From an uncultured virus (IMG/VR IMGVR_UViG_3300037119_007256) (taxonomy: Duplodnaviria; Heunggongvirae; Uroviricota; Caudoviricetes), in the IMG/VR virus record IMGVR_UViG_3300037119_007256: a DNA stretch of 20,000 nucleotides; one strand, written 5' to 3'. Below, one piece after another: positions 1 to 16,255 of this stretch; the stretch's first letter is position 1; each line of letters begins with the position of its first letter. The notes beneath the pieces are model-generated. The model was not told where the DNA came from. It ran no database searches and saw nothing but the letters and a program-made list of their open reading frames with translations. Both the position numbers and the translations under genes were made by a program.

Positions 1-309
1 AACCCGATGGGCTACTCCGGGGTTAACCTCAAGCTCCCAACGTCGGCCGGCATGGTCGCAGAGGTTCAGCTCAATAGCCCGGCGATGATCTATGCCAAGG
101 AGCCAGAGAAGACGGCCAGGGGTATCCTGGGGGACGCCCTTTACGATAAGCTCAGGGCGGCGTCGGGGGTCGAGGGCGGCAAAGGGCATGCGCTGTATGA
201 GGAGTACCGGGCGCTGCCGGAGAAGCACCCACGAAGGGCTGAGATAGAGGCCGAGAGCCGGGCGTATTATGACCACATGCGGGGGTTCACACATGGGCGT
301 ATCGAGTAA
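1..309 (+). CDS. C-terminal part of a RelA/SpoT-like (small alarmone synthetase-type) nucleotidyltransferase domain protein; 5' truncated by the window edge
   Basis: Frame is open from base 1. GYSGVNLKL...AEVQLNSPAMIYAKE...GHALYEEYR matches the GY(R/S)...E-x-Q...H-x-x-Y succession of the RelA/SpoT synthetase domain. TAA at 307-309. Confidence 0.7.
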   Translation, partial: NPMGYSGVNLKLPTSAGMVAEVQLNSPAMIYAKEPEKTARGILGDALYDKLRAASGVEGGKGHALYEEYRALPEKHPRRAEIEAESRAYYDHMRGFTHGRIE

Positions 310-2143
310 GCGGTTCCAGGAGGGCGACGTCTATCTGCGCGAGGACTACTTCAAGGTATTCTTCCGTTACGATAGCGCGGCCGAGAAGTTCTACCGCAAG
401 TTCATGGACAACCCCGGGGTCGAGAAAGAAGTCCACTATAGTAACGGTTTGCTCAACGAGGCGCTCCAGACCGGTGAGGAGGTCACGGCGGAGGAGTACC
501 AGGCTGGGCGGCCGGGGGCGCCGCCGGGCAAGTCACCAAATACCGAGGGTGACCTGGATTTTAGTGTGGCCACCGGCACGGACCTCGACGTGTGGGTGGC
601 CAGGTTCGCCTTCGAGGAGGGGCAGCACCCACGGGACGCCGGCGGCAGGTTCGCGCCGGCGGGTGGTGGAGCGGATGCCCTGTCCCATGAGTTGTTCAGC
701 AATGGCGACTATATATTTCATCGCATAACGGATCAGAACGAATTGGACGGGGCCACTACAGACCTATTCGGCAGGCCACTTACGAACAAAGAGATTAGCA
801 ACTTGGTGGGGGCAATAGACGGGGCCACGCTGAGGGTGTATGCCGCTCATATGAGGGTCCCTATCGCGGGTGTCGCCTCGTCTATCACTGTCGAAGTGGA
901 GCACCCGCTGTATCGGCAGCGCCGGGAGATTATCAAGGATAGGGACGGGAAGACCATCATCAGGAACAAGTCGTTCACCGCCGTCCCTAATGCTCCATAT
1001 GGGATGGGTACACGAATTACAGCAAAACAAGTTCAAACAGCCAGGGCATTGGGGGTGGATCGTATTGAAACATGGGCGGCTGGTGGGCCGGCGGAGTCTG
1101 CCAACAATGGGTACTACACCTGGCCGCGGCTTGGGTATGAAATGCCGCTGATCGGCGGCACCCTAGACGCGGCATGGGCTGCCGGGTTCGAAGGCGCTAA
1201 GACAACGATTGACCTCATGCGGGCGCCAGGCGGAGCTAAATGGTGGGAAAAACACGGTACTGGTGGATTGGCGAAATTCGACCTGGACCCGGATAGTGCG
1301 TCTTCCCAGGTACTGGACAATTATCTCGAGGAACGGGGTGTGCGGCTAGGCGGATCAGCGGCGTTCAGGTCCGACATGGAAACGTGGCAAGAGGAAGCGG
1401 CGTTCGCCTTTGACGAAGCCGAGCACCCGCGGGACGCGGCTGGCAAGTTCGCCACAGCCGCCGGCGGCGGGGCAGATGCTTTATCGGCGGCCATGTTCGG
1501 CAGCCATAAACGGGAGTTCAAGGTCGAGGACGAGGAGGAGTTGCTCGCGGCTCAGGAGCACCTGTTCGGTAAGGCCATAACTAACGACGAGATCGCCGAC
1601 CTGGTTGGCGCGGCGGATGGGGCCACCTTAGGGATAGAGGCCTACTACAATTACCATGCCTCCACTGAGTCACACATCACGGTGGAGGTAGACCACCCGT
1701 GGTATACTCAAAACCGGGTGATATGCAAGTCGCCTGCCGGGGAGCTGGTCATCTACAACAAGTCGTTCGAGGCCGAGAAGGACGCCCCGGCGGGCATGGG
1801 GACGCGGATCATAGCCAGGCAGGTTCAGGCAGCCCGGGCCATGGGCGTCAAGCGGCTCGAGACATGGGGCGCCGGTAGTTTCAATGGGAGCATGAATGGG
1901 TATTACACGTGGCCGCGGCTAGGATATGTGGCGGAGCTGGACTACACCCAGAGGGAGATGGCGCGGGAGGCCGGGCTTGGGGAGGTTGAGACCACGGCGG
2001 ACGTCATGCGGGCGCCGGGCGGGCCGGCCTGGTGGAAGAGGAACGGGTCCGCTGGAGTGATGAAGTTTGACCTGGACCCGGACAGTGTGTCCTCCCAGGC
2101 GCTGGAATACTACCTCGAGGAAAAGGGGGTGAAATTGTCATGA
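293..2143 (+). CDS. Fusion protein: about 75-aa small acidic/aromatic domain + [leader + GNAT-like domain] x2
   Basis: ATG at 293 has GGGGGT at 281-286 and overlaps the upstream gene end, so it is preferred to ATG 269. Two internal copies of FAFxExxHPRDAxG[RK]F each precede a domain containing GMGTRI..Q...AR..GV..(I/L)ETW and NGYYTWPRLGY. Confidence 0.8.
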   Translation: MGVSSKRFQEGDVYLREDYFKVFFRYDSAAEKFYRKFMDNPGVEKEVHYSNGLLNEALQTGEEVTAEEYQAGRPGAPPGKSPNTEGDLDFSVATGTDLDVWVARFAFEEGQHPRDAGGRFAPAGGGADALSHELFSNGDYIFHRITDQNELDGATTDLFGRPLTNKEISNLVGAIDGATLRVYAAHMRVPIAGVASSITVEVEHPLYRQRREIIKDRDGKTIIRNKSFTAVPNAPYGMGTRITAKQVQTARALGVDRIETWAAGGPAESANNGYYTWPRLGYEMPLIGGTLDAAWAAGFEGAKTTIDLMRAPGGAKWWEKHGTGGLAKFDLDPDSASSQVLDNYLEERGVRLGGSAAFRSDMETWQEEAAFAFDEAEHPRDAAGKFATAAGGGADALSAAMFGSHKREFKVEDEEELLAAQEHLFGKAITNDEIADLVGAADGATLGIEAYYNYHASTESHITVEVDHPWYTQNRVICKSPAGELVIYNKSFEAEKDAPAGMGTRIIARQVQAARAMGVKRLETWGAGSFNGSMNGYYTWPRLGYVAELDYTQREMAREAGLGEVETTADVMRAPGGPAWWKRNGSAGVMKFDLDPDSVSSQALEYYLEEKGVKLS

Positions 2144-2275: not shown

Positions 2276-3100
2276 GTGTCGTACGACGGCGACCTGGACG
2301 ACGCTGGTGTCGCGGCGCCGGCGCATATCGACATGTCGGGGTGGGCTATGTTCTCGTTCGACGAGAACGAGGCCCGTGACAAAGCGGGGAAGTGGACCAA
2401 GGCTGGCGGTGAGGGCGCCGGTGACGCCCTCTCGCAGCAGTTGTTCGGCAAGGGCGAGCGGGCGTTCAAGGCGCCCGGCGATAAGAGGCTGGCCACGGCC
2501 ACGGAGGAGCTCTTCGGCAAAGCCGTGACCAAGGACCAGATCGCGGACCTGGCCGGCGCGACGAACGGGGCCATCGTGAAGATAACCTTGGGCCAGTCCG
2601 GTGTTGGCGGCGTGTGGAGGACCATCGTCAAGGTGGACGTGAAGCACGCGCTGTATACGCAGAAGCGCGAGATCGTCAAGGGCAAGGACGGCAAGCTCGT
2701 CGTCAAGAACAAGTCGTTCTACTCCACCGAAGAGGCGCCGCCGGGCATGGGAACGCGAATGATGGCGAAGCAGGTGGAGACCGCCAGAGAGTTAGGCGTC
2801 GCGCAGCTCGAGACGTGGGCCGACGGCAACAAGCACTCGCACAACAACGGGTACTACACGTGGCCGCGGCTGGGGTACGACATGCCATTGCCTGATTATT
2901 TCACGCTCATGGCGGAAAAGAACGGGTTCAAAAGTCCTAAAACGGTGACTGATCTTATGTGTCAACCAGGCGGGGCTGAATGGTGGAAGGAATGGGGCCG
3001 TGGCGGGGCCGCGACGTTCGACCTGGACCCCGACAGTGTGTCCTCACAGGTGCATGCCGCCTACCTCGAGGAGAAGGGGGTGAGGCTTGGCACTGCTTGA
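2276..3100 (+). CDS. Leader + GNAT-like domain protein (third paralogue)
   Basis: GTG at 2276 with AAGGAG at 2263-2268. Contains DMSGWAMFSFDENEARDKAGKW, APPGMGTRMMAKQVETARELGV and NNGYYTWPRLGYD. Clearly homologous to both domains of 293..2143. Confidence 0.8.
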   Translation: MSYDGDLDDAGVAAPAHIDMSGWAMFSFDENEARDKAGKWTKAGGEGAGDALSQQLFGKGERAFKAPGDKRLATATEELFGKAVTKDQIADLAGATNGAIVKITLGQSGVGGVWRTIVKVDVKHALYTQKREIVKGKDGKLVVKNKSFYSTEEAPPGMGTRMMAKQVETARELGVAQLETWADGNKHSHNNGYYTWPRLGYDMPLPDYFTLMAEKNGFKSPKTVTDLMCQPGGAEWWKEWGRGGAATFDLDPDSVSSQVHAAYLEEKGVRLGTA

Positions 3101-6100
3101 CAAACCAGGCCTGGTGTGGACCAGCGTGGTCGACGACCATGACGCGGATCTTGATGGGTGGGCGGCCTTCGCCTTTGAGGCCGAGAAGCACCCGCGTGGC
3201 CCTGACGGCAAGTTTATATCGCGTGAGAATATCACCGAGCAGCTGATCGCCAAGGGCTCGGAGCTCGGCGCGTCTGGTGCGGCCAAGGTGGCGGCCGTCA
3301 ATATGGCCGAGGCGGCCATCGCCGAGGGTACTGCAACGGCCATTGCCTGGAACCAGGCCGTGGCGCACCTGGAGAGCTTGACACCGGCGAAGGCCGACTT
3401 TGCCACCCCTGCTGACTATGCCGCCCATGCCGCACTCAAGGCTAAGGGTACGGCGGAGGCCATGGACCCATCCTGGGCCCTGACGGCGGGTGAGGCGGGC
3501 AAGAAGCAGTCCTTCGGCGCGGTGTTAGTTGATGATACCGGACGCTTCCTCCTTCGCGAGCCGTCCGGCCACTACGGCGGTTATGCGTGGACTTTCGCTA
3601 AAGGCGGGGGCCACGCTGGGGAGAACCCGGTCGACGTGGCCGTTCGTGAGGTAGAGGAAGAAACGGGCCATACTCCGGTCCTAATCGGCACGGTCCCGGG
3701 CAAGTTCGCCGGCGACACCACGCTGAATCGGTTCTTCCTCGCCAAGTCCGGCGGCCACGACCCGTCCAAGATGGACGAAGAGACGGCCAGCGTTAAGTGG
3801 GCGACCCCCGAGGAGGCCGCGGCCCTGATCGGCCAGACCACCTCCGCCAAAGGCAAGGCGCGGGACCTGGCACTCCTGGCGGCTGCGCAGGAGGCTCTGG
3901 CCACTCAGGGGCAGCCAAAGGCCCAGTCGGAACCCCCTGAGACCGTAGCAGGGCCCGTGGTGACCCCAGGCGGCGTCCAGCTGCACGTCGTCGGCGGCCC
4001 CAAGTGGGCGGCACGGGCCGCGGCAGGTTGGACGACCTCGGAGACCGGCACAACCGGAAAGCTGAACCTGGTAGCCCCCGATGGTGAAGTCGCCGGTCAG
4101 ATATATCCGGACAATAAGGGCGGCTATAAGGCGGTGCAGGCCGGCGGGATGCACCTAGGCGGGTCCAAGAAGTCACAGGATGCGGCATTGGAGGCGGTGG
4201 CGGCGGCACATGTGTCCAGCGGCAAAAAGCCGGGTGCCCAGCTAGGCAATCAGAATGCCTACAAGGGTGGACCGACTGTGGCGGAGCCTGGTGGCAAGAT
4301 CAGTATCGAAGAGGCCGCCGCCGAGCAGCAGGCCCTGACCGATGCCATGACGCCGGAGGACTGGGCTGAGATTATTGCGGAAGACCTGGGTGAGGATGAG
4401 GATGAAAAAGACCTGATATATCAGGTAGAATCGGTTCACAAAGAATTTGCGAAATGGGAGGTGAACCAGGCTGCTGGATGGACATTAAGCGGCTTCGGCA
4501 CTATGGAGCTCAAAAACCCATCCGGGGCCGTTGTCGGCGTTATATCCAGCGCCAGCGGCAAATGGCTAATAGTGTCGGGGCCAGGCCAAGGGCCTAAGTC
4601 GTACCCAAGCTGGTCGGCCACCACTAACGCTATGATAGCGGCCTACAAGGCTGCCGGGCCCGTGGCAACCCAAGGGGGCGACCTGGGAGAGGGCCCGTAT
4701 GGCACATGGCCGACGGCAGAGAACGTGCCAGTCGCAGAGTCCGTCGCCGAGGCCGGTCTTTCCGACCCTGAGGACGGGACCCACCTTCACCCGGACGCCA
4801 AGCCTTCTGCCGCGGTCGGGCCGGCCTCCAATCCGTACGGCTGGGTGTTCAAGAAGGGGTCGCAGTGGGCAGCCCTGGCGCCTGACGGGTCGTCGAAGAA
4901 CTTCTCCAGTGCCAAGAAGGCCGGGGCCTATCTCGGGACCAAGGCGGGCGCGGACGCCGCGGCAGAGGTGTCGAGCGGGAAGGCGCCCGGGGGCCAACCC
5001 GGGAATCAGAATGCTTACAAAGGCGGTAGTGCCCAGCAGGAGAAGGATAGGTGGGCCGCCCGTAATGACGCCGGGTGGACGGCGGTCAAGCACCCCGGCA
5101 ACTCCAATCGGCATGATGTTAAGGCCCCCGGTGGTGAGCTGGTCGGCCGTGCGGAGTACAACGACGATACCGGCTACTTCCAGGCCTATGACTCTAATGG
5201 CACACTCCTTGGGGACGACTATGCTACCAGGGCCACGGCTTTAAACGCAGTGGCGACGGTCTATAGTAACAAGAAGCCCGGGGCGCAACCAGGGAATCAG
5301 AACGCCTACAAGGGTGGGGCCGCGTGGCAGGAGAACGACAAGTGGAATGGCCTTGAGGCCACGGGGTGGGACTCGGTTCAGGACACGAGTAACACCCACC
5401 GGTATAATATCAAAGCCCCTGGCGGTCAGCCGGTCGGTCGTATAGAGTACCGCGACGCTGACGGCCACTACTCGGCCTATGACGTCAACAGCGTTTTCCT
5501 TGGCAACTACGACATTAGGGCGAGGGCCCAGAACGCCGTCGTGGCAGCCCACAACAGTAAGAATGCCCTTGAGGGAGCGCTGGGTGCCGCCGGCTGGACG
5601 AAGGGCGAGGGAATACTCGGCGGGTCGAAAGTGGTAGCCCCTAACGGCGAAGTCGCCGGCTCCGTGTGGCTGGACGGCAACGGGAATTGGGCGGCGGTCG
5701 ACGCCGCCGGGAAGGAGATCGGCGGTCACAAGAAGTCGCAGGAGGCGGCTCTAAAGGCAGTGGCGGATGCGTCGGGGTATGCCGCGGCGCTGAAGAGCGG
5801 GAAGAAGCCAGGGGCTCAACCTGGCAATAAGAACGCGTACAAGGGGGGCCCGACCGCCCTCGAATCGGACAAGTGGTGGTCAGCGGTCAGCGCCGGTTGG
5901 TCCCTTGAGGGCGAGGGCACCATGACGGTCAAGGACCCGACCGGGGCTACCGTCGGGCTCGTGTCGAACGCCGATGGCCGCTGGAAGGGGTACTACACCG
6001 CCACGGCCGGGCCGATCCAGGACCTTGGGGTCCAGCCGCACTGGTCCACCGCTGCGAACGCCGTCAAGGCCGCCCACGAGGAGCAGGGCGGTACGATGGG

Positions 6101-9100
6101 GGTTGCCCACGGGGCCGAGGCCGACCCGGATGCCAAGGAGGCGGCGATCGCCCAGTGGGGCGTGCTGAAGGACCAGGGGTGGTCCCTCGAGGCGACCATC
6201 GGCGGCATTGTCGCCGGCATGGCCACTGTCACGGCCCCGAACGGCTCCGCCGCCGGCTACGTGAAGCCGTCCGCCAGCGTCGGGGCCTGGGACGCTGTCA
6301 ACACGATGAACCAGCCGATCTCCACCCACACCAAGAAGGGGTGGGCGGTGTTGGCCGTCGTTAAGGACTGGCAGGAGAACAAGGCCGCCGCGGATCAACT
6401 GGCCGAAGAGGTGAGCATATCGCACCCGGCCCACCCGCCGCTGATGGCCCCGGTGCAGGCGACGGGGGCCATCGCCGACGCGTGGGCCGCCCATAGGGCC
6501 GCCCTGGTGGCCAAGGGCCTTCCGCCGGGCGAGCCGGGGCTGCCGGGGCTGCACAAGGCTGCGATTGACTCTGAGCTTGAGGCGGCGATCGGCCAGTCTG
6601 ACATATCGGGCACCACTCCCACGACCCAGGGTGGGTCATGGGCTAACCCCGCGGAGTGGCAGCCTGGTGGGACGTGGTCGAACCACCTCGTGCCCAAGCT
6701 GGTGGCGCTCGGCGTCGATCCAAATACGGCCACCGAGTCTGTTACCAACTACCACAACCTCCACGGGGCAGGGACAGCCGCGGTCGGCGGCGACCCGGCC
6801 GTGGCGTGGGGCAAGCAGCTCGCCGCTGGGTGGTCGGCGCAGACTAATGGAATTGGCAGCAGTGCCGAGGTATACCCGCCCGGCGGCGGCATGTCCGTGG
6901 GTTACGCGGTCAAGCAGACGGATGGGACGTGGGCGGCTGTCGGCACCACCACTGGGGTTGGGGTGGACCTCGGTAACCATGCGACCAAGGAGGGGGCCCT
7001 GGCGGCGATCGTGACGGGCAAGAAGCCCGGGGCCCAGCCAGGTAACAAGAACGCCTACAAGGGCGAGTCCCTTGAGCGCGAGGGCAAGAAGTGGGCCAAG
7101 AACGAGGGTAAGGGGTTCTGGTTCGAGAACAGCCCGCTACCCGACGGCACGCCGTCCAAGTCGGTGAAGGACCCTGGCGAGGCGGACATTGGTCGGATCG
7201 TGTCTGGCGACGGTGACAACTGGCACGCCCTAGGGCCAGACGGTGCCGCCCTCGGCACGTACGACAGTCGGTTCGGCGCCCTCAACGCTGTTGTCCACGC
7301 GGCCGCCCAGCCCGCCAGCGGCAAGGCGCCCGGGGCCCAGCCCGGTAATAAGAATGCGTGGAAGGGCGGGCCGCACGACATACCTGGTATGTCGGATCAT
7401 GAGCACGCGGCGATCGAGGTACTTAAGGGCGGGCCACTTGCCTATTCCGAGGTCCAGGCTGCCTGGCCATCGGATATGGACAAGACGTACGCGGCTCAGG
7501 CCCTTCACAGCCTCGAGGGCCGTGACCTGGCGGAGCAGAGCCAGGATGGGACATGGCACCTGACTACGATACCAACGCCGGCGGCCAGTGGCGACCTGGA
7601 CCAGCCGGCGCCTGTTACGACGGCCGGCGGTTACGTAGCGGAGCCATCTGAATTTTATCCTGGCACGCATAACGTTAAGGACCCTGTTGGTCTCACTATC
7701 GGTTCCCTGACGATTGGCCCGTCCGGTTACAAGGCGATGACGGGCACGAAGAGCCTCGGCTACTACGACTCGATGGACAAGGCGTTGGCTGCGGTTGAGA
7801 CGGCACATAAGGGGGCATCGACCACATATCAGCCCGGCACCTACAACGAGGAGGCGACCAAATGGCACGGGCTCACGGACAATGGGTGGGCGACCGAATT
7901 CGTAGACTCGAAGACTTTCAAGGTGTTGGCACCTGGCGGAGTCCACGCTGGGACCAGCCTTGAGGACGACGACGGGAATTTCGCCGCCCATGGGCCCAAT
8001 GGGGAGTCGCTCGGCACCTTCCTGTACCATGTGGATGCCGTTAACGCCGTCGCAGAGGCCTACAGTGGGAAGAAGCCCGGGGCGCAGTTGGGCAACCAGA
8101 ATGCCTACAAGGGGGGCCCGTCCGGAGACGAGCTGCACAAGTGGGTGCAGCAGCATGTAGCGGCTGGGTGGGACCATGCCTACTCCATGCTCAACGGCGA
8201 GGAGGTCGACAACGTCTACTCGCCGGCCGGCATCAAGGGCGGGTACATCAAGGAGGAGACGGTCGACGGTAATAACATCCACACGGCGACCGCCCCCGAC
8301 GGCACGGCGTTGGGCTCCTTCGACAACCACTATGCCGCCATGAACGCCATCGTGCAGTACCACAAGGACGTGGGGTACGAGTCGCTATCTGACAAGGGCC
8401 CCATCGCCCTCGGCAGCGGTATGGAGGGTATGGTAGAGGAGGGGAGCGACGACATCCGGGTCATGCATGAGGACCATGGCCACGTCGGCTGGCTGTCACC
8501 GGGGGCGTCCGGCACATGGAAGGCGATCGGCAAAGATGGGATGTTGTTGGTAGCCGGCCTGGACAGGGAGGAGGCGGCCAAGGCGCTCCTGAACGACGCC
8601 GTCACTGGTGCAGGAACGGCAGAGGCCGACGCGGCGGAGGCGGCCGATGCGGCGGCTGATGCAGCGGCACCGCCGCACTACCAGGAGGCCAGCGAGGGCA
8701 ATGGCCACATAGAGGCGGCCAAGTGGAAGGAGCGCGAGGACGCCGGGTGGACGACGGTTGTATCCGGCATGGGCTCCGAGGCTACCATCCAGGAACCGGG
8801 TGGGATGGTGGTCGGCTCGGCCGTCATGGACATCGAGGGTTACTGGACGGCCAAGGGCGCGGACGGCGGGACAATTGGTACCTACCTCTACCACACTGCC
8901 GCCCTCAATGCCGTGGCCCACGCCCACGATGGTGGGATAGGTAAGAAGCCTGGGGCTCAGCCTGGTAACCAGAACGCCGACGCCAAATGGGCTATCGCCA
9001 CCGTCGACGGGTGGGGAACATCCGTCTTTGACGACGATGGCAATATGGAGGTTTATGCGCCAAATGGGGAAACGGTTGGGAAGATCCAGCTCAGCGATAC

Positions 9101-12100
9101 GGTAGATGCTACTGTACTTGGCGAAGATGGCCTTAGCCACGATATTGGCCAGTTTGGCACTATCACGGATGCCAAGAATGCCATAGTCTCGTACCACAGC
9201 GGCAAGAAACCAGGCGCCCAGCCAGGGAACAAGAACGCATACAAGGGCGGGCCTGACCTGGAGGAACAGGCCAAGTGGGAGGCGCACGTCGACGAGGAGA
9301 ATTGGCAGGAGTCGTACGGTGCCGGTGAGGAGCTACTACTCACCTCGCCGGAAGGTGATACCGCCGGGACCGTCCACGAGAACGAGGACACCGGCAACTT
9401 CGATGCTACCGCAGTCGACGGCGCGTATCTCGGCGAGTACATGACCTCGGCGGCCGCCAAGAACGCCGTCGCGCACTACCACGAACAGACCCAGAGTGGG
9501 CCAGGGCCAGCGATTCACCCCGATGCCATATGGGGCGGCCACGTCTCTGCCGGGTGGGGGTACCACGCCGAGGGCGACGAGATACATATAACTTCGCCCA
9601 CCGGCATCACGGTCGGCGTCCTCAGTGAAGGCCCGCATGGCCTCATAATGGCGCAGGTGGTGAATGGTCCCGACCTTGGTGCGTTCGATAATAGCGCAGA
9701 GGCCAGAAACGCCATAGTCGCCCACCATAGTGGCAAGGCGCCCGGAGCCCAACCGGGGAACCAGAACGCATACAAGAACGGGCCAGCCGACGAGGAGGCC
9801 GTGAAGTGGCAAGCCGGACCCGGCGGATCCAGTTGGTACATTGACAGTGAGGGTTCGGTGTACACCGGCGCCAATATGTTTGCCGGGCGTGTTGAGGAAA
9901 CCGCTGATGGTTGGAAGGCATACAAGGCTCATGGCGGAGAGGTAGGGACATATGCAACCAAGTTAGGGGCGTACAATGCGGTCGCGTGGTCCGCCGGATA
10001 CCCCTACCCGGGGCAGTATGAGGAGTCATACACCGAGGCCACGGCCGGAGACGTGGGCGACCTGGACGTCGCCGCGCCATCGGTTGCTGCGCCGGCCGCC
10101 GCAGACCTGACGGCGGCGATTGCGGCGATCGGCCCCACTGGGCCGGTCAAGCCGGCCGCCCCGTTGCCGTCGCTCGGGACACTGCCGAAGCCCGCGACCA
10201 CCACCGAGCTCAAGGCCAAGGTGATGGAGCTCGTCGACCAGGGTTACTCCTCGGCCGACGTCGCGACCGCTCTCGGGGTCAAGCAGACCTACGTCTCGGA
10301 CCACGCCTCACGAACACGTGCCCAGCGTAAGAAGGACGTCGCCGCCCTCCAGGCCGGTGCGGCTGCGGCTCCGGCCGCTCCGGCCACTCCGGCCACTCCT
10401 GTCAAGCCCTACGTAGCGACTGGCCCCGTGCCCGCCGGCTTCCCGGCCGAGCCGCACAAGTTGGAGTTCGTCAAGGCCCTTGGCGGGTCGACCGGGGCCA
10501 AGCAGTATCGGGATGCCGAGGGCGGGCTGTGGGTGTTGAAGAAGGGTAAGTACGCGGACCACGTGAAGTCCGAGTCCGACGCCGATGCCGCCTACGCGGC
10601 CGCCGGCATCGACGTGCCGGAGCACCACCTCTACGACACCGCGGAGGGGCCGCTGAAGGTCGCCAGGTGGGTAGAGGGCGTGGAGCTCGGCAAGTGGGCG
10701 GCGAAGGCCACGCCGGCCCAGAAGGCCGAGCTGGTCGCCAGGCTGCAGCGCGGGTTCGCCATGGACGCGCTCATGGGCAACTGGGACGTCACCGGGGCGT
10801 CCGCCGACAATGTCAAGGTGGACGCCACGGGACGACCCTGGCGTATCGACAACGGCGGGTCAATGGACCACCGGGCGCAGGGGGAAAAGAAGGAGCCCGA
10901 GCAGTGGAACGAACACCCGACCGAGCTGTGGACGCTGGACGACCCTAGTAAGAAGACGGCGGAGTGGCTTGGTGCTCCCAGCCATGATACCAAGGTCGCC
11001 CAGATGAAGGACCTGTTGACCAGGCGGGCCTCTATTCTGGCGTCGATCCAGGACCCGGGGCGGCGCGGGGTCGTCGCCGGGCGGCTGGACTCCATGGCCA
11101 GAGTGGTCAAGGCGTCCGATGCGATGAAGGCCGACAATTTCTCGCAGAAGCACCGCGGGGAGTTCGCCCGCCACCAGGTCGGAATGGCGGCCCACGGGGC
11201 ATTCGGGATGCTGCCGAAAAAGCTCGTGCCGCAAGGCGGGCCCAAGTCCGTCACCCTCATCAACCCGGAGAACGGCGTAGCGTTCGACGGCATGCGGGCG
11301 GCCGGATACACTCCCGTGAAGCACTACACAGTCAATCTGGTGGAGGGGTCGCACGGGCAGGGGCAGAAGTGGAAGGAACAGGTCCTGGTCAATGGGGCGG
11401 TTGTCGGCACCGTCGAGAAGGTGTCCAGCGGCGTGTACAAGGCCACTGACTCTAAAGGGGAGGTCACGAGGTTTACCACGGGTTCGGCGGCAACCACGGC
11501 TATAGCGGAACCATACAAGGGGGCGGCAGCCGTGGCTGCCGGCGGCTCCAAGTTCAAGTCAATGACCGATGGCGTATACGACTACATCAAGCAGCAGGGC
11601 GGCAACCCGGAGATCATCAAGCAATGGACGGAGTCGCAGGGCGGCGGGTCGCAGTCCGGCCACTCGCTGGCGGTCAAGTACTACCTGGCCACGCAGAACT
11701 CCTCGGACTTGCAAGGTGACTACTATTGGACCAGCGGTTTGGCCTCTTCCAAAGCGGAGTACGAGAAAAAGGTACAGAAGTACGGCGCAGACGTCTTCCG
11801 CAAAACGATTGAGGCGTACCACGCGGCGACATATGAATTGCTGTCGCGGGTCGATTTGCCTCACCTCGACCGGGCCGCCGGCACTATCGAGGTGATGAGG
11901 TCCGAGCGGAAGGCCGTCGACAACGCCATGCAGAAGGCCGGCATACCGCAGTTGCCTCCCAGCGGCCCCAACAAAGTGGTCAAGGACCTGAACATCCTGT
12001 CCGGGCCGCTGGAGTCCTTCTCGCTGATGAAGCGGGTATTTACCGGCGACAAGTACAACTGGCGGATGAAGGTGCCGCTGCACCGGATATTCGGAACCTA

Positions 12101-12227
12101 CCTGACGGAGCGGGACCCGGGCCACGGTAACTCGCCGTTCCTCGGCGACACCGAGAACGAGATCATGGTCATGACCGACAAGAACATCAAGGCCGAGGCG
12201 ACGCTGAACAAGAATTCGGCATGGTAG
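3087..12227 (+). CDS. Giant 3046-aa polyvalent protein: leader - Nudix hydrolase - repeat array - wHTH - HTH - atypical (PI3/4K/HipA-like) kinase - ADP-ribosyltransferase-like domain
   Basis: TTG start with AAGGGGG SD at 3074-3080 and an uninterrupted 9.1-kb frame. Perfect Nudix box GGGHAGENPVDVAVREVEEETG; kinase-type GGSTG..VLKK..E..NWD....DN..RIDNGG; C-terminal R (EVMRSE), S-x-S (ESFS) and E-x-E (ENE). Confidence 0.88.
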   Translation: MALLDKPGLVWTSVVDDHDADLDGWAAFAFEAEKHPRGPDGKFISRENITEQLIAKGSELGASGAAKVAAVNMAEAAIAEGTATAIAWNQAVAHLESLTPAKADFATPADYAAHAALKAKGTAEAMDPSWALTAGEAGKKQSFGAVLVDDTGRFLLREPSGHYGGYAWTFAKGGGHAGENPVDVAVREVEEETGHTPVLIGTVPGKFAGDTTLNRFFLAKSGGHDPSKMDEETASVKWATPEEAAALIGQTTSAKGKARDLALLAAAQEALATQGQPKAQSEPPETVAGPVVTPGGVQLHVVGGPKWAARAAAGWTTSETGTTGKLNLVAPDGEVAGQIYPDNKGGYKAVQAGGMHLGGSKKSQDAALEAVAAAHVSSGKKPGAQLGNQNAYKGGPTVAEPGGKISIEEAAAEQQALTDAMTPEDWAEIIAEDLGEDEDEKDLIYQVESVHKEFAKWEVNQAAGWTLSGFGTMELKNPSGAVVGVISSASGKWLIVSGPGQGPKSYPSWSATTNAMIAAYKAAGPVATQGGDLGEGPYGTWPTAENVPVAESVAEAGLSDPEDGTHLHPDAKPSAAVGPASNPYGWVFKKGSQWAALAPDGSSKNFSSAKKAGAYLGTKAGADAAAEVSSGKAPGGQPGNQNAYKGGSAQQEKDRWAARNDAGWTAVKHPGNSNRHDVKAPGGELVGRAEYNDDTGYFQAYDSNGTLLGDDYATRATALNAVATVYSNKKPGAQPGNQNAYKGGAAWQENDKWNGLEATGWDSVQDTSNTHRYNIKAPGGQPVGRIEYRDADGHYSAYDVNSVFLGNYDIRARAQNAVVAAHNSKNALEGALGAAGWTKGEGILGGSKVVAPNGEVAGSVWLDGNGNWAAVDAAGKEIGGHKKSQEAALKAVADASGYAAALKSGKKPGAQPGNKNAYKGGPTALESDKWWSAVSAGWSLEGEGTMTVKDPTGATVGLVSNADGRWKGYYTATAGPIQDLGVQPHWSTAANAVKAAHEEQGGTMGVAHGAEADPDAKEAAIAQWGVLKDQGWSLEATIGGIVAGMATVTAPNGSAAGYVKPSASVGAWDAVNTMNQPISTHTKKGWAVLAVVKDWQENKAAADQLAEEVSISHPAHPPLMAPVQATGAIADAWAAHRAALVAKGLPPGEPGLPGLHKAAIDSELEAAIGQSDISGTTPTTQGGSWANPAEWQPGGTWSNHLVPKLVALGVDPNTATESVTNYHNLHGAGTAAVGGDPAVAWGKQLAAGWSAQTNGIGSSAEVYPPGGGMSVGYAVKQTDGTWAAVGTTTGVGVDLGNHATKEGALAAIVTGKKPGAQPGNKNAYKGESLEREGKKWAKNEGKGFWFENSPLPDGTPSKSVKDPGEADIGRIVSGDGDNWHALGPDGAALGTYDSRFGALNAVVHAAAQPASGKAPGAQPGNKNAWKGGPHDIPGMSDHEHAAIEVLKGGPLAYSEVQAAWPSDMDKTYAAQALHSLEGRDLAEQSQDGTWHLTTIPTPAASGDLDQPAPVTTAGGYVAEPSEFYPGTHNVKDPVGLTIGSLTIGPSGYKAMTGTKSLGYYDSMDKALAAVETAHKGASTTYQPGTYNEEATKWHGLTDNGWATEFVDSKTFKVLAPGGVHAGTSLEDDDGNFAAHGPNGESLGTFLYHVDAVNAVAEAYSGKKPGAQLGNQNAYKGGPSGDELHKWVQQHVAAGWDHAYSMLNGEEVDNVYSPAGIKGGYIKEETVDGNNIHTATAPDGTALGSFDNHYAAMNAIVQYHKDVGYESLSDKGPIALGSGMEGMVEEGSDDIRVMHEDHGHVGWLSPGASGTWKAIGKDGMLLVAGLDREEAAKALLNDAVTGAGTAEADAAEAADAAADAAAPPHYQEASEGNGHIEAAKWKEREDAGWTTVVSGMGSEATIQEPGGMVVGSAVMDIEGYWTAKGADGGTIGTYLYHTAALNAVAHAHDGGIGKKPGAQPGNQNADAKWAIATVDGWGTSVFDDDGNMEVYAPNGETVGKIQLSDTVDATVLGEDGLSHDIGQFGTITDAKNAIVSYHSGKKPGAQPGNKNAYKGGPDLEEQAKWEAHVDEENWQESYGAGEELLLTSPEGDTAGTVHENEDTGNFDATAVDGAYLGEYMTSAAAKNAVAHYHEQTQSGPGPAIHPDAIWGGHVSAGWGYHAEGDEIHITSPTGITVGVLSEGPHGLIMAQVVNGPDLGAFDNSAEARNAIVAHHSGKAPGAQPGNQNAYKNGPADEEAVKWQAGPGGSSWYIDSEGSVYTGANMFAGRVEETADGWKAYKAHGGEVGTYATKLGAYNAVAWSAGYPYPGQYEESYTEATAGDVGDLDVAAPSVAAPAAADLTAAIAAIGPTGPVKPAAPLPSLGTLPKPATTTELKAKVMELVDQGYSSADVATALGVKQTYVSDHASRTRAQRKKDVAALQAGAAAAPAAPATPATPVKPYVATGPVPAGFPAEPHKLEFVKALGGSTGAKQYRDAEGGLWVLKKGKYADHVKSESDADAAYAAAGIDVPEHHLYDTAEGPLKVARWVEGVELGKWAAKATPAQKAELVARLQRGFAMDALMGNWDVTGASADNVKVDATGRPWRIDNGGSMDHRAQGEKKEPEQWNEHPTELWTLDDPSKKTAEWLGAPSHDTKVAQMKDLLTRRASILASIQDPGRRGVVAGRLDSMARVVKASDAMKADNFSQKHRGEFARHQVGMAAHGAFGMLPKKLVPQGGPKSVTLINPENGVAFDGMRAAGYTPVKHYTVNLVEGSHGQGQKWKEQVLVNGAVVGTVEKVSSGVYKATDSKGEVTRFTTGSAATTAIAEPYKGAAAVAAGGSKFKSMTDGVYDYIKQQGGNPEIIKQWTESQGGGSQSGHSLAVKYYLATQNSSDLQGDYYWTSGLASSKAEYEKKVQKYGADVFRKTIEAYHAATYELLSRVDLPHLDRAAGTIEVMRSERKAVDNAMQKAGIPQLPPSGPNKVVKDLNILSGPLESFSLMKRVFTGDKYNWRMKVPLHRIFGTYLTERDPGHGNSPFLGDTENEIMVMTDKNIKAEATLNKNSAW
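3505..3900 (+). other. Nudix hydrolase domain within the giant protein
   Basis: G-x5-E-x7-RE-U-x-EE-x-G at 3603-3668, preceded by GAVLVDDTGRFLLR and W-x-F-x-KG, followed by ETASVKWATPEEA. Confidence 0.9.
4002..9990 (+). repeat. Intragenic array of about 19 diverged 60-75-aa domains punctuated by 10 conserved K[KA]PG[AG]Q[PL]GN[QK]NA(YKGG) linkers
   Basis: Linkers begin at about 4224, 4980, 5271, 5802, 7020, 7323, 8070, 8943, 9204, 9735. Domain consensus KW.....GW.....v..P.G..vG.v.....w.A...G..lG.y.....A.nAv...h. Confidence 0.9.
10461..11095 (+). other. Atypical protein/lipid kinase-like domain (PI3/4-kinase/HipA-like fold)
   Basis: Gly-rich LGGSTGA, beta3 Lys (WVLKK), helix-C Glu (KSE), catalytic-loop-like MDALMGNWDVTGASADN and DFG-equivalent RIDNGG. 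Confidence 0.7.
11560..12200 (+). other. ADP-ribosyltransferase-like domain (R-S-E class, DraT-like motif spacing)
   Basis: Arg at 11898 (IEVMRSE), PLESFS at 12006-12023, KVPLHRI, and GDTENEIMV with E-x-E at 12153-12161. Confidence 0.65.
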
Positions 12228-12235
12228 GAGGGGCG

Positions 12236-12634
12236 ATGAACCTTGAGGTGTGGGGTGGGCGGAGGGGGTTCGACGACCACGGCATGGCCTGGCTGGAGCT
12301 CGACATAGCCGGGTGGCCCGCGCACCCCGACGGCACGTCGGCAGGGCGGGCACGAATTCCAATAGAGGACAGCGCGAGTAGGCCAGCCTTGCGCGCGGGG
12401 TATATATTCATGGGGGCGGAGGCGGAGGGGTTCCTCCCGGCGCTCCCGCTTCCACCGGACCCGGAGGCCGGGCGGTATGAGGTTCATCGCCTCGAGGGCT
12501 TCACAGACGACCCCGCCGTGCGGTGGTTGTTCAACGAGGCCGAGGAGGCGATAGAAGCCGGGCTGGACTACGAGCGCGAGCTGACGGCGGTCGACCTGGC
12601 TGAGGCGGTTAAGGCCCGGAAGGGGGTATTATGA
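12236..12634 (+). CDS. Acidic 132-aa hypothetical protein, candidate immunity/partner of the giant protein's C-terminal ART domain
   Basis: ATG 12236 preceded by AGGAGG (12226-12231), directly after the giant ORF stop. Its stop overlaps the protease start (ATGA). Function is inferred from position only. Confidence 0.7.
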   Translation: MNLEVWGGRRGFDDHGMAWLELDIAGWPAHPDGTSAGRARIPIEDSASRPALRAGYIFMGAEAEGFLPALPLPPDPEAGRYEVHRLEGFTDDPAVRWLFNEAEEAIEAGLDYERELTAVDLAEAVKARKGVL

Positions 12635-13593
12635 GCGAAGTTGTGCGTAAAGGCCTGTTGTTCCGGGCTGGCCAGTACCCCGACAAGGGCTATTCGATGA
12701 CCCCTGAGGAGCTTACCGCGGCTGCCGCGGCGTTCTCCGGGCCGCTCAAGCTCGACATGGAGCACACGCCGACCCCACTGGACGGGGCGCTGGGCGAACT
12801 CAGGTCGGTTGAGGTCCGCGATGGGGTGATGTACGGCGAGGTCGCCCTGCCGACGTGGCTTGACGGCGAGCTCGAGAAGTCCGGCAATGGACGCAAGGTC
12901 TCCTGCCTGTGGGACCGCGCAACCAAACAGCTGCGGGGCCTGTCGCTGGTCCGTACCGGTCGCCTCGAGGACGCCGCCCTGATGGCCGCATTCTCGGCGG
13001 CCCACCCCGTAGAGGAGCAACCTGCCCAGCGTAAGGGTTGGCTGGCTTCTCTGGTTGCCAAGTTCACCAGGGCCGCCGAGGAGACAGCTGACGAAGCCGC
13101 CGCTGAGGCCAAGGCCGCTGCTGAGGCGGCGTTCACCGCCGAGGTGGCCCGGATTAGGGCCGACGCCGAGGAGACCGTCAAGGAGCAGCGCCGGGTCGCC
13201 GCGGTTGAGCGAGCCGCCAGGGTCGAGTCCGAGTCGGCGGCGTTCGCCGACTGGGCTGTGACGTCCGAGCGGGCGATGCCGGCCGAGCGAGACCAGCTCA
13301 AGGCGCAGTTCGCGCAAGCCCTGTCCGACGACCTCGCGTCCCCCGCCAAGTTCACGATCGGCAACAAAGAGGGCGGGCGGGCCGACCTGCTTCGGTCACA
13401 GGTCGCGGCTCGCCTGCCCCATGGATTAGGCCGCGAATTGGTGGAAGCTCGGCCGGCAGCCGGTGTCACGATCCTCGCGGCAGAGTTCAGCGGCGAGGCC
13501 GGCCCGAGCGGCGGTAACGGCATGAGCGCCGAGCGGAAGCAGAAGCTGATGGAAATGACCTCGCTCGGGCGTTCTGCCCGCGGGTCCAATTAA
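12631..13593 (+). CDS. Prohead protease/scaffold protein (Mu gpI-like)
   Basis: N-terminal LFRAGQY...T.EEL...F...L.LDMEH...ALG...RKVS pattern (putative catalytic His and Ser) followed by an Ala/Glu-rich coiled-coil scaffold. Lies upstream of the decoration and capsid genes. Confidence 0.8.
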   Translation: MSEVVRKGLLFRAGQYPDKGYSMTPEELTAAAAAFSGPLKLDMEHTPTPLDGALGELRSVEVRDGVMYGEVALPTWLDGELEKSGNGRKVSCLWDRATKQLRGLSLVRTGRLEDAALMAAFSAAHPVEEQPAQRKGWLASLVAKFTRAAEETADEAAAEAKAAAEAAFTAEVARIRADAEETVKEQRRVAAVERAARVESESAAFADWAVTSERAMPAERDQLKAQFAQALSDDLASPAKFTIGNKEGGRADLLRSQVAARLPHGLGRELVEARPAAGVTILAAEFSGEAGPSGGNGMSAERKQKLMEMTSLGRSARGSN

Positions 13594-13622
13594 AGCCAGA
13601 TGATTGGCTGGAGGGCGACGAA

Positions 13623-14051
13623 GTGCCGACCGCACCGAGCGTGATATTCACCAATAACGGCCTCACCCCGTGGCAGAACCCGGAGGAGGCGCGGACCATC
13701 CAGGTCAAGTTCCCGAATGCCACCGGAGCTGTTGCCAAGGGCACGGTCATCGGGCAGCTGACGGGCGTCGGAACCAACTGGGGCGCGTACAATGACGGCG
13801 TGGCGACGGGGCTCGAAGTGGCCAGGGCCATCCTCCAGTACGACGTCTACGTGGACGCCAATGGGGTCCATACCATCACCGGCGCCGGGTCCACGCAAGG
13901 CGAGAAGGGTGAGAAGGCTGAGGGGTGCCCCGCCTTCGTCGCCGGCACCTTTGCGACGGCCGAGCTGGTGGGCCTGAACGCTGCTGGAGTAACGGACCTT
14001 GGCCGACTGATCCAGGGCACCCTGGCTGACGGCATACTGCGCATGGGCTGA
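13623..14051 (+). CDS. Head decoration (capsid cement, lambda gpD-like) protein
   Basis: GTG with GGAGG SD; 142 aa; KGTVIG...YNDG..TG.EVARAIL.YD...AFVAGTF pattern; sits between scaffold and capsid genes. Confidence 0.75.
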   Translation: MPTAPSVIFTNNGLTPWQNPEEARTIQVKFPNATGAVAKGTVIGQLTGVGTNWGAYNDGVATGLEVARAILQYDVYVDANGVHTITGAGSTQGEKGEKAEGCPAFVAGTFATAELVGLNAAGVTDLGRLIQGTLADGILRMG

Positions 14052-14069
14052 TAGGAAAGAGAGACAACA

Positions 14070-15101
14070 GTGCCCACATATGTATATCCGACCAGCCAGG
14101 AGTTGTCGGAGATCGCACAGGAGAAGGCGCCGCGCCTGATGCAGGACCGGCCCGTCTTCCAGATTCTGCCCATCCGTACCGTCGACGCCTTCCTGGTCTC
14201 CTGGGAGCAGAAAGACAACTACACCGGGCTACAGCAGTTGCGCGGCATCAACGGCGAGCCAGCCCGTGTCAAGCACGTCGGCGGCAAGCGATTCGATGTG
14301 CAGCCAGGCATCTACGGCGAGTTCAAGAACATCGACGAGCTGATGCTGATGCAGCGCCGCCAGTGGGGTACCTTCGGGACCCCGATCGACATCTCGGACC
14401 TCGTCATGGAGGCACAGGACCACCTGCTCGAGAGGCGGCTCGACCGGATCGAGCTGATCGGGTGGACCCTACTGTCGACCGGGACATTCTCGGTCGCGAT
14501 GCCCGGGGTCACTGCGTCGCAGGGCGGCATTGCCCATACCGACACTTATCCCCTCCAGACGTATGGGGCGGGCGTGGCGTGGGCGACGGTAGCGACAGCG
14601 ACGCCGCTTCTGGACTTCAGGGCGGTCAAGCTGCTGGGGCGGGGCAAGGGCGTGTCGTTCGGCACCGGGGCGCGGGCGCTGATGAATCAGACGACCGCCA
14701 ACAACATGCTGAACAACACGAACCCCAACGACCTGTTTGGTCGGCGCCACACGGGGCTTCAGACGCTGAACAACATGGGTGACATCAATCGCCTGCTGGC
14801 CGGCGACGACCTGCCTCAGCTTGAGATCTATGACGAGGGCTACCTGGACGATGCCGGTACCTTCCAGCTGTACATCCCGAACAACAAGGTCATCTTGATC
14901 GGCAAGCGATCGGCCGGGCAACAGATCGGCGAGTACCAGATGGTGCGGAACGTCAACAACGCGAACCTGGAGCCTGGCGTGTACATGAAGGTCATCGACC
15001 GTGGCGACACTGAGGTACCACGCAGCATCGAGGTCCACGACGGGCACAACGGCGGGCCGGCGCTCCATTACCCCGGTTCCGTGGTTGTCATGACGGTCTA
15101 G
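14070..15101 (+). CDS. Major capsid protein (lambda gpE-like, HK97 fold)
   Basis: 343 aa; L..R.DRIE..GW..L.TG.F and W......TPL.D motifs, EIYDEGYLDDAGTFQLYIPNNKVIL, terminal P...P..VVVMTV; synteny. Confidence 0.9.
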   Translation: MPTYVYPTSQELSEIAQEKAPRLMQDRPVFQILPIRTVDAFLVSWEQKDNYTGLQQLRGINGEPARVKHVGGKRFDVQPGIYGEFKNIDELMLMQRRQWGTFGTPIDISDLVMEAQDHLLERRLDRIELIGWTLLSTGTFSVAMPGVTASQGGIAHTDTYPLQTYGAGVAWATVATATPLLDFRAVKLLGRGKGVSFGTGARALMNQTTANNMLNNTNPNDLFGRRHTGLQTLNNMGDINRLLAGDDLPQLEIYDEGYLDDAGTFQLYIPNNKVILIGKRSAGQQIGEYQMVRNVNNANLEPGVYMKVIDRGDTEVPRSIEVHDGHNGGPALHYPGSVVVMTV

Positions 15102-16057: not shown

Positions 16058-16255
16058 ATGGCCGAGCTGAGCGCCAAGAAACGGGACAGGCTGAAGACAG
16101 GTTCCTTCGCGCTGCCGAGGGAGCGGGCGTACCCAATCCACGACATCTCCCACGCAAGGAATGCCCTCGCCAGGGCGGCGCAGCACGCGTCGCCGGTGGA
16201 ACAGGCGAAGATCAGGGCGGCGGTGTGCAAGAAGTACCCGTCGCTTAAGAAGTGA
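16058..16255 (+). CDS. Small basic protein, DUF6582-like
   Basis: ATG 16058 with GGAGG at 16048-16052. LSAKKRDRLKTGSFALPRERAYPIHDISHARNALARAAQ fits the FA.P..R.yP..D..H.RNA.AR pattern recalled for DUF6582. Confidence 0.65.
   Translation: MAELSAKKRDRLKTGSFALPRERAYPIHDISHARNALARAAQHASPVEQAKIRAAVCKKYPSLKK

Follow-up and report, generated by a model that had tools for sequence, protein, structure and literature searches.

The window analysed here, a 20,000-nucleotide stretch from an uncultured tailed phage, encodes a 320-aa protein in which a predicted His/Ser prohead protease is fused to a scaffold. This protein probably follows a simple cleavage code, under which it would cut after Phe in the motif [AV]-x-F/[AST] (the slash marks the predicted cut bond). 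The evidence was obtained by computation and consists of the fold, the invariant residues, the enrichment of the motif, a match in register with other head proteases, and co-variation across phages.

The protease-scaffold gene and its surroundings

The window holds the head and tail region of the phage, with cargo-like genes, the 320-aa gene, a gene for a putative decoration protein, a Phage_cap_E capsid gene and tail genes. Its main genes are as follows, where HPR denotes a short module defined below.

293..2143, + strand: polyprotein of a Tis1-like immunity domain (Pfam Tis1_ImmP, E 4e-14), an HPR module, a predicted GNAT-fold domain, an HPR module and a second predicted GNAT-fold domain
2276..3100, + strand: leader and predicted GNAT-fold cargo domain 3 (AF2 pLDDT 95; Foldseek GNAT-fold matches)
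3087..12227, + strand: 3046-aa polyvalent-type protein with a leader, Nudix domain (NUDIX, E 1e-13), long repeat region and HTH
12631..13593, + strand: predicted prohead protease (residues ~3-121) fused to a helical scaffold (AF2 model, Foldseek, VIA)
13623..15101, + strand: putative decoration protein and major capsid protein (Phage_cap_E)

Among the candidate starts of the polyprotein, ATG 293 has the better Shine-Dalgarno sequence, and the gene for cargo domain 3 probably starts at GTG 2276. The C-terminal 600 aa of the 3046-aa protein look kinase-like and ART-like, as a lead from the Atlas only. The same protein carries the motif G-[NK]-x-N-A ten times (consensus KKPGAQPGNQNAYKGG), spaced by repeat units of ~75 aa. 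A GDL[DG] motif lies upstream of two leaders (545-560 and 2288-2300) and occurs three times inside the 3087-12227 protein.

The gene end at positions 1-309 has an EVQL-type motif and, judged by eye, is presumably RelA/SpoT-like. It lies directly upstream of the Tis1-like immunity domain (293-510), which is joined in frame to the cargo polyprotein, and the two probably form a pair of (p)ppApp-synthetase toxin and immunity protein. Among the head-completion genes, a stand-alone gene at 16058-16255 is DUF6582-like with a weak Pfam score; relatives have a similar module fused N-terminally to the protease, also with weak Pfam scores.

The 320-aa protein has no match in Pfam (E ≤ 0.1) or PHROG (E ≤ 0.01), its protease domain has no NCBIfam match, and it does not reach the curated cut-offs of the Phage_GPO, Peptidase_S78, S78_2, Mu-like_Pro and DUF2213 profiles. 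A search of annotated phages found no relatives. Related proteins form 937 clusters at 50% identity, and the longest contig that encodes the 320-aa protein measures 72,255 bases. A fixed-gap DNA pattern for the family hit 23 genome loci; an HMM confirmed 18 of them, the other five were false, and 15 of the 18 confirmed loci are labelled Armatimonadota or its genera. A pattern derived from a 12-sequence alignment found the family in viral and metagenome contigs, and nothing in genome contigs.

In an AF2 model (pLDDT 86), a beta-barrel (residues 3-118) is followed by a low-confidence linker (120-137) and then by the helical scaffold. The best Foldseek matches of this model are herpesvirus proteases (E 2e-4), and VIA aligns 113 residues with VZV protease (Z 11.3, rmsd 3.1) and 108 with T4 gp21 (Z 9.5, rmsd 3.0). 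This is the assemblin beta-barrel fold by which membership in the SH-clan procapsid proteases is recognized, and the gene sits, as theirs do, in the head module upstream of the capsid gene. Counts over 152 homologues refer to a set made up of the best 150 proteins and two more. His45, Gly55 and Ser91 are invariant in this set, and two of them are predicted to be catalytic.

12763..12765, + strand: His45, predicted catalytic His from invariance (152 of 152 homologues, the best 150 plus two) and position
12901..12903, + strand: Ser91, predicted catalytic Ser from invariance (152 of 152 homologues, the best 150 plus two) and position

His45 also aligns with the P2 gpO His in hhalign, at a weak probability of 19%. 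Judged by its model, the 320-aa protein is an SH-clan procapsid protease fused to a scaffold, and is presumably active. The Shine-Dalgarno signal of an internal scaffold start, Met118, is at background level. Relatives more often fuse small modules onto the protease itself, with linkers that carry [AV]-x-F.

The phenylalanine motif and the predicted cut bond

As the initial annotation had noticed, eight of the nine Phe residues in the 320-aa protein (F35, F121, F145, F168, F205, F227, F241 and F286) lie in A-x-F-[AST]. When the composition of the protein was shuffled, the mean was 0.51 matches and none of 20,000 shuffles reached eight, although the p-value is post hoc because the motif was defined on this same protein. 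In 139 homologous scaffolds, the motif occurs 302 times against 58 expected, with 121 of the 139 above expectation; 64 protease ORFs of related loci hold 166 against 33.5 expected. Across 66 distinct family loci, the motif ratio is 5.0 in protease ORFs, 1.5 in portals, 1.1 in capsid proteins and 0.8 in decoration proteins, and just 1.5 in the genes between portal and protease. The capsid proteins show no sign of a P2-like propeptide ending in Phe, with 0 of 10 capsid Phe residues in the motif here and the family ratio of 1.1. The four Phe residues of the decoration protein are likewise free of the motif, as had been claimed for both proteins.

Scaffold enrichment of the Phe motif is 5.4-fold, and 3.5-fold once conserved Phe columns are excluded. 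In the same context, Leu, Ile, Val and Trp are near or under background; Met is about 2-2.4-fold enriched, so the specificity may be wider than Phe. As a control, the HK97 tail plus delta domain is significantly enriched in K/[AST] (9 vs 3.9); the corresponding scaffold enrichment is not significant in TLS (p 0.16) or P2 (p 0.23).

The sites in the protease-scaffold and the loop that anchors their register are given here.

12958..12963, + strand: Pro110-Arg111 loop, which anchors the register (residue 110 is Gly here and Pro in 147 of 152 homologues, the best 150 plus two)
12979..12996 (Phe codon 12991-12993), + strand: LMAAF/S, predicted self-cleavage site at the protease/scaffold border, Phe121
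13057..13491, + strand: six scaffold A-x-F-[AST] sites (F145, F168, F205, F227, F241, F286)

The protease core includes F35, which is conserved in 143 of 152 homologues (the best 150 plus two). F205 and F227 lie in conserved columns of confident helices, where Phe is found in 104 and 56 of 142 sequences, respectively, and a column near residue 241 has Phe in 122 of 142. These four residues may be structural, and because they are conserved or lie in confident structure, not all eight motif residues need be cut sites.

The conservation of these four would also fit a motif that is a structural or binding signal and is never cut, with Phe on an Ala-rich helix face or on the last protease strand, and with the leader F-A-F belonging to the HPR module. 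Ala makes up 19% of the scaffold, and the boundary Phe moves in 3-residue steps, which is near the helical repeat. However, the enrichment remains in non-conserved columns and is confined to Phe and Met, other phages have D, N, K, L, R or A in place of the first leader Phe, depending on their protease, and in three phages this register marks true cut sites. An uncut signal is therefore unlikely.

Cleavage after Phe is best placed by the boundary between protease and scaffold. The motif that had been reported at this boundary is indeed there, with Phe121 at the start of the low-confidence linker. In the 151 parsed homologues of the best-150-plus-two set, the first Phe after Pro110 is at +11 in 107, at +8 in 21, at +14 in 13 and elsewhere in seven, and is absent in three. 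Across the 3-residue shifts, the boundary thus retains a Phe in 148 of 151. A Phe is also found shortly ahead of the protease domain in 88 of 94 homologues that have an N-terminal extension. The residue after the boundary Phe varies (A, S, T, N, G or D), and Ala is common on both sides of the motif Phe. An apparent co-variation between Tyr and Phe at the boundary was rejected, as the 18 "Tyr" cases carry a 3-residue insertion, mostly followed by a Phe.

Other head proteases have their own residue at this register. In HK97 gp4, Pro148+11 is Lys159, followed by Ser, and the HK97 capsid protein carries Lys103-Ser, which we take to be its maturation site. A gp4 self-cleavage site at K166 would misfit the sequence, in which the boundary Lys is residue 159; the support from HK97 thus comes from the register and from K103 of the capsid protein. 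The DUF2213 protease of TLS has Asp-Ser at its end, and the residue ahead of the N-terminus of the capsid protein, determined by Edman degradation according to the available part of PMC11447400, is also Asp. The Edman peptide starts at residue 28 of the annotated TLS capsid protein (L232 6088-7062), whereas the removal of 45 residues is inferred in that part of PMC11447400. In P2 gpO, Pro131+10 is Phe141, and residues 31-32 of gpN read Phe-Thr; the available text of PMC7552001 gives residues 1-141 as the gpO protease domain and a gpN cut between 31 and 32. The register residue (K in HK97, D in TLS, F in P2) is in each case followed by a small or cysteine residue. This match makes F/[AST] the likely bond, and the P2 precedent for a cut after Phe means that Phe specificity is not new.

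It is improbable that the motif is recognized and another bond is cut, for instance one residue further on (behind Ala or Ser) or behind the Ala upstream of Phe. Herpesvirus proteases cut Ala/Ser and are the nearest solved folds, and the Ala residues that flank the motif Phe would fit such a cut. But the position that corresponds to HK97 K, TLS D and P2 F is held by Phe, not Ala, and the residue that follows Phe is variable. Cleavage after Phe remains the preferred reading. The Phe-specific protease proposed in the initial annotation thus stands with respect to its SH-clan protease-scaffold fold and its F/[AST] register, and was overstated where all eight sites were taken as cuts.

The HPR module and its protease-matched leader

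All four cargo leaders carry A-x-F-[AST], as first observed. They are distributed over three ORFs, the first of which has two; a further match lies before the Nudix domain.

599..652 (F codon 605), + strand: leader ARF/A, then HPR module 1, between the Tis1-like immunity domain and predicted GNAT-fold domain 1
1397..1450 (F codon 1403), + strand: leader AAF/A, then HPR module 2, between predicted GNAT-fold domains 1 and 2
2345..2395 (F codon 2351), + strand: leader AMF/S, then a degenerate (EAR) module
3162..3215 (F codon 3168), + strand: leader AAF/A, then HPR module 4, at the start of the 3046-aa protein
3393..3404 (F codon 3399), + strand: ADFA before the Nudix domain

Behind every leader site comes [AS]-F-[DE]-E-x-x-H-P-R-D-x-x-G-[KR]-[FW], with one of the four copies degenerate. 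The signal in the leaders lies in their position, with the motif directly ahead of the HPR module; whole-ORF motif counts in the three cargo ORFs are not significant (2 vs 0.8, 1 vs 0.23 and 2 vs 1.86). The ADFA match had been counted as a further motif, but it lies within chance (one of 2 matches in 3046 aa, against 1.86 expected). For this reason, the 3046-aa protein is predicted to lose its leader only, and not to be cut into domains.

The putative module [FW]DExxHPRDxxGKF behind each leader motif is new and widespread in phages, and had been missed in the initial annotation. It has no match in PDB sequences or NCBIfam, and phrog_38358 touches it weakly. A scan of viral contigs for F-[AST]-F-[DN]-xxx-HPR gave 0 matches. 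The mostly open-access literature covered contains no description of the protease family, the HPR module or the co-variation described below.

Three of the four cargo domains are members of a paralogous 230-aa domain, with 48-52% identity to the first member. The domain model has a pLDDT of 95, and its Foldseek list consists mostly of GNAT-fold proteins (E 2e-4 to 3e-3, with low TM-scores); as modelled, the cargo domain has a GNAT fold. Other phages have homologues of it behind HPR modules, and one family locus has such a homologue joined to MuF. In many phages, HPR modules are also part of portal, MuF and protease fusions. Few members of the protease family have HPR cargo (1 of 66 other loci), and the strict HPR pattern is present in 2 of 152 homologues (the best 150 plus two), with AAF just upstream in each. 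The GNAT-fold and Nudix-bearing proteins, which are unrelated, have the common leader D[LM]xxWxxA-x-F/[AS]FDE.

Co-variation between leader and protease was scored from a scan for HPR modules that was blind to the upstream residue. The scan gave 131 stretches, 78 loci with flanks, and 67 loci after 11 overlaps were dropped. To locate proteases, 300 segments taken from 250 of the 724 ORFs were run against Pfam, followed by iterated profiles and inspection. The boundary residue of each protease was compared with the four residues before the first aromatic residue of the module. The resulting table has 38 lineages, of which two come from the protease family of the window and one is without an unselected module. 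Nine of the 38 lineages came from a Lys-selected scan, and the selected modules were removed for Lys-type proteases. The table omits eight actinophage-type loci that lack the aromatic anchor and one locus whose boundary was unreadable, and two spurious off-frame modules are counted within one of its units.

The residue ahead of the HPR module equals the protease boundary residue (D, N, K, L, R, A or F) in 29.5 of 37 lineages, against 15.4 under permutation (p ≤ 5e-5), with labels that were not fully blind and a p-value that is optimistic because the lineages are related. For unselected loci only, the match is 21.5 of 27 against 11.0; with Asp types excluded, it is 13.5 of 21 against 5.2. Seven lineages are complete misses and one is a half miss. 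In control windows further upstream of the HPR module, the match is not significant. Among DUF2213 proteases, two lineages were scored with a switch from Asp to Asn, with Asn at both the boundary and the leader.

A hold-out set was then drawn from a new scan, in which an alignment column gave P1 automatically ahead of any display of the leaders. A protease was matched in 30 of the 75 loci, and a filter written before the leaders were seen kept 17 (16 after removal of one duplicate). In these, the match is 15.7 of 16 (12 Asp, 4 Lys), against 10.7 under permutation (p 4e-4, optimistic for the same reason). Of the other 13 loci, three fell in gaps of the alignment, one had a weak Lys call, which missed, and nine had weak Ser calls. 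The Ser calls represent one DUF2213 subfamily, in which the boundary is unreadable, and nearly all were missed. This subfamily has Asp leaders, so its Asn label in the lineage table is probably wrong.

The initial annotation had asked whether scaffold and leader motifs co-vary across related phages, and in both data sets the leader residue follows the protease type. Switching of the predicted P1 residue across protease families at HPR leaders is new, and had been missed. Cut sites look predictable from sequence.

That self-cleavage and scaffold cleavage are real while the upstream proteins are neither packaged nor trimmed, with leaders as remnants of a duplicated module, would fit the paralogy of the three cargo domains and the rarity of HPR cargo in the protease family, but is very improbable given that the unrelated Nudix-bearing protein has the same leader, that HPR modules sit on portal, MuF and protease fusions (with the GNAT-fold domain fused to MuF in a family locus), and that the pre-HPR residue is tuned to the protease of each phage.

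Proposed maturation and comparison with known systems

In the maturation pathway that we infer, which includes cleavage itself, the packaging of cargo and any role of the HPR module, the scaffold part would carry the protease into the prohead. The protease would free itself at LMAAF/S (Phe121) and fragment the scaffold at some internal sites, so that the scaffold could leave. The same protease would trim cargo precursors at A-x-F/[AS], one residue ahead of [FW]DExxHPRDxxGKF. Cuts at the leaders would split the immunity and GNAT units of the polyprotein and make the HPR module the new N-terminus of the cargo. The trimmed GNAT-fold and Nudix-bearing proteins, HPR module first, would probably be injected. 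The release of cargo domains inside the head, as proposed in the initial annotation, is favoured by the co-variation of leader and protease, and needs revision at the Nudix domain and for the 3046-aa protein.

A start codon with a good Shine-Dalgarno sequence lies within 10 codons upstream in 28 of 107 modules without an assigned protease, a group with some truncated loci and with at least four of actinophage type in which a protease is present, versus 3 of 77 modules with an assigned protease. This suggests an N-terminal function of the HPR module, with the N-terminus supplied by either translation or cleavage. In three loci with portal, scaffold and capsid genes and no detected protease (L034, L051 and L099), the HPR module begins 1-3 residues after the start codon. 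Actinophage-type loci (L032, L048, L049, L053, L057, L089, L094 and L096) have an N-terminal WG[ST]REExLHPRD ~9 residues past the start, and a protease gene with seemingly two protease-like domains.

A broader reading, which we hold tentatively and at somewhat less than even chances, is that HPR is a widespread virion-cargo tag that needs a free N-terminus and has its function after maturation, perhaps in ejection or in tethering DNA. Phages with a protease would write their own P1 (D, N, K, R, L, A or F) 1-4 residues ahead of the tag, and phages without an evident protease would put the tag right after the start codon. If this is true, the residue that ends any SH-clan protease domain would predict its specificity, also for host sensors (CBASS). 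Prohead protease specificity is relevant to CBASS sensing, according to the available part of PMC12991175.

A different short module, GHPFRGNQY, is found in head proteins (L050 8148-10166; L070 oriented 12548-14032). In L050, it follows Lys at a similar distance, and may be a second post-cleavage tag. An unannotated protease-scaffold-like protein (L085 4439-6325) has a scaffold full of Tyr-[SAT] and is a candidate Tyr-specific head protease.

To our knowledge, cleavage rules are established for just a handful of phage head proteases. The present analysis offers a testable cut rule for a large unannotated protease family, and the simple sequence rule behind it recovered the specificities of three other head proteases as well as the hold-out set. 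The HPR module is a short, searchable tag for probable injected cargo, and would let virion-delivered effectors be listed across many phages.

Polyvalent proteins and effectors fused to MuF, portal or peptidase resemble the cargo described here, in that Nudix, ART-like and toxin/immunity domains lie beside or are fused to head proteins. Such effectors are predicted to be packaged and injected in the available text of Iyer et al. (PMC5512222, PMC9503650). The string "HPR" is absent from the main text of PMC5512222, and the available parts of these two papers describe no protease-matched leader.

HK97 gp4 (Peptidase_S78) and the TLS DUF2213 protease are similar to the 320-aa protein in that the boundary residue at the same register is the capsid-maturation P1. 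They differ in that this P1 is Lys or Asp, and the 320-aa protein has no Pfam match. According to the available text of PMC7552001, P2 gpO is likewise an N-terminal His/Ser protease joined to a scaffold. Phe is at the C-terminal boundary of its protease, at +10 from the conserved Pro versus +11 here. The profile similarity to gpO is weak (hhalign 19%), with no Pfam match, and a capsid substrate is not indicated here.

T4 gp21, phiKZ gp175 and SPN3US gp245 cut themselves, their scaffolds and the propeptides of cargo at a short repeated motif, according to the available text of PMC10052503. T4 gp21 also has the same fold as the 320-aa protease (Z 9.5). These three proteases are not fused to a scaffold and have Glu as P1 (I/L-x-E, A-x-E), whereas P1 is predicted to be Phe here. 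As with T4-type capsid-targeting leaders, unrelated proteins share a leader that ends in the protease motif. The T4 capsid-targeting sequence is the part that is removed, whereas here a conserved module would stay on the cargo.
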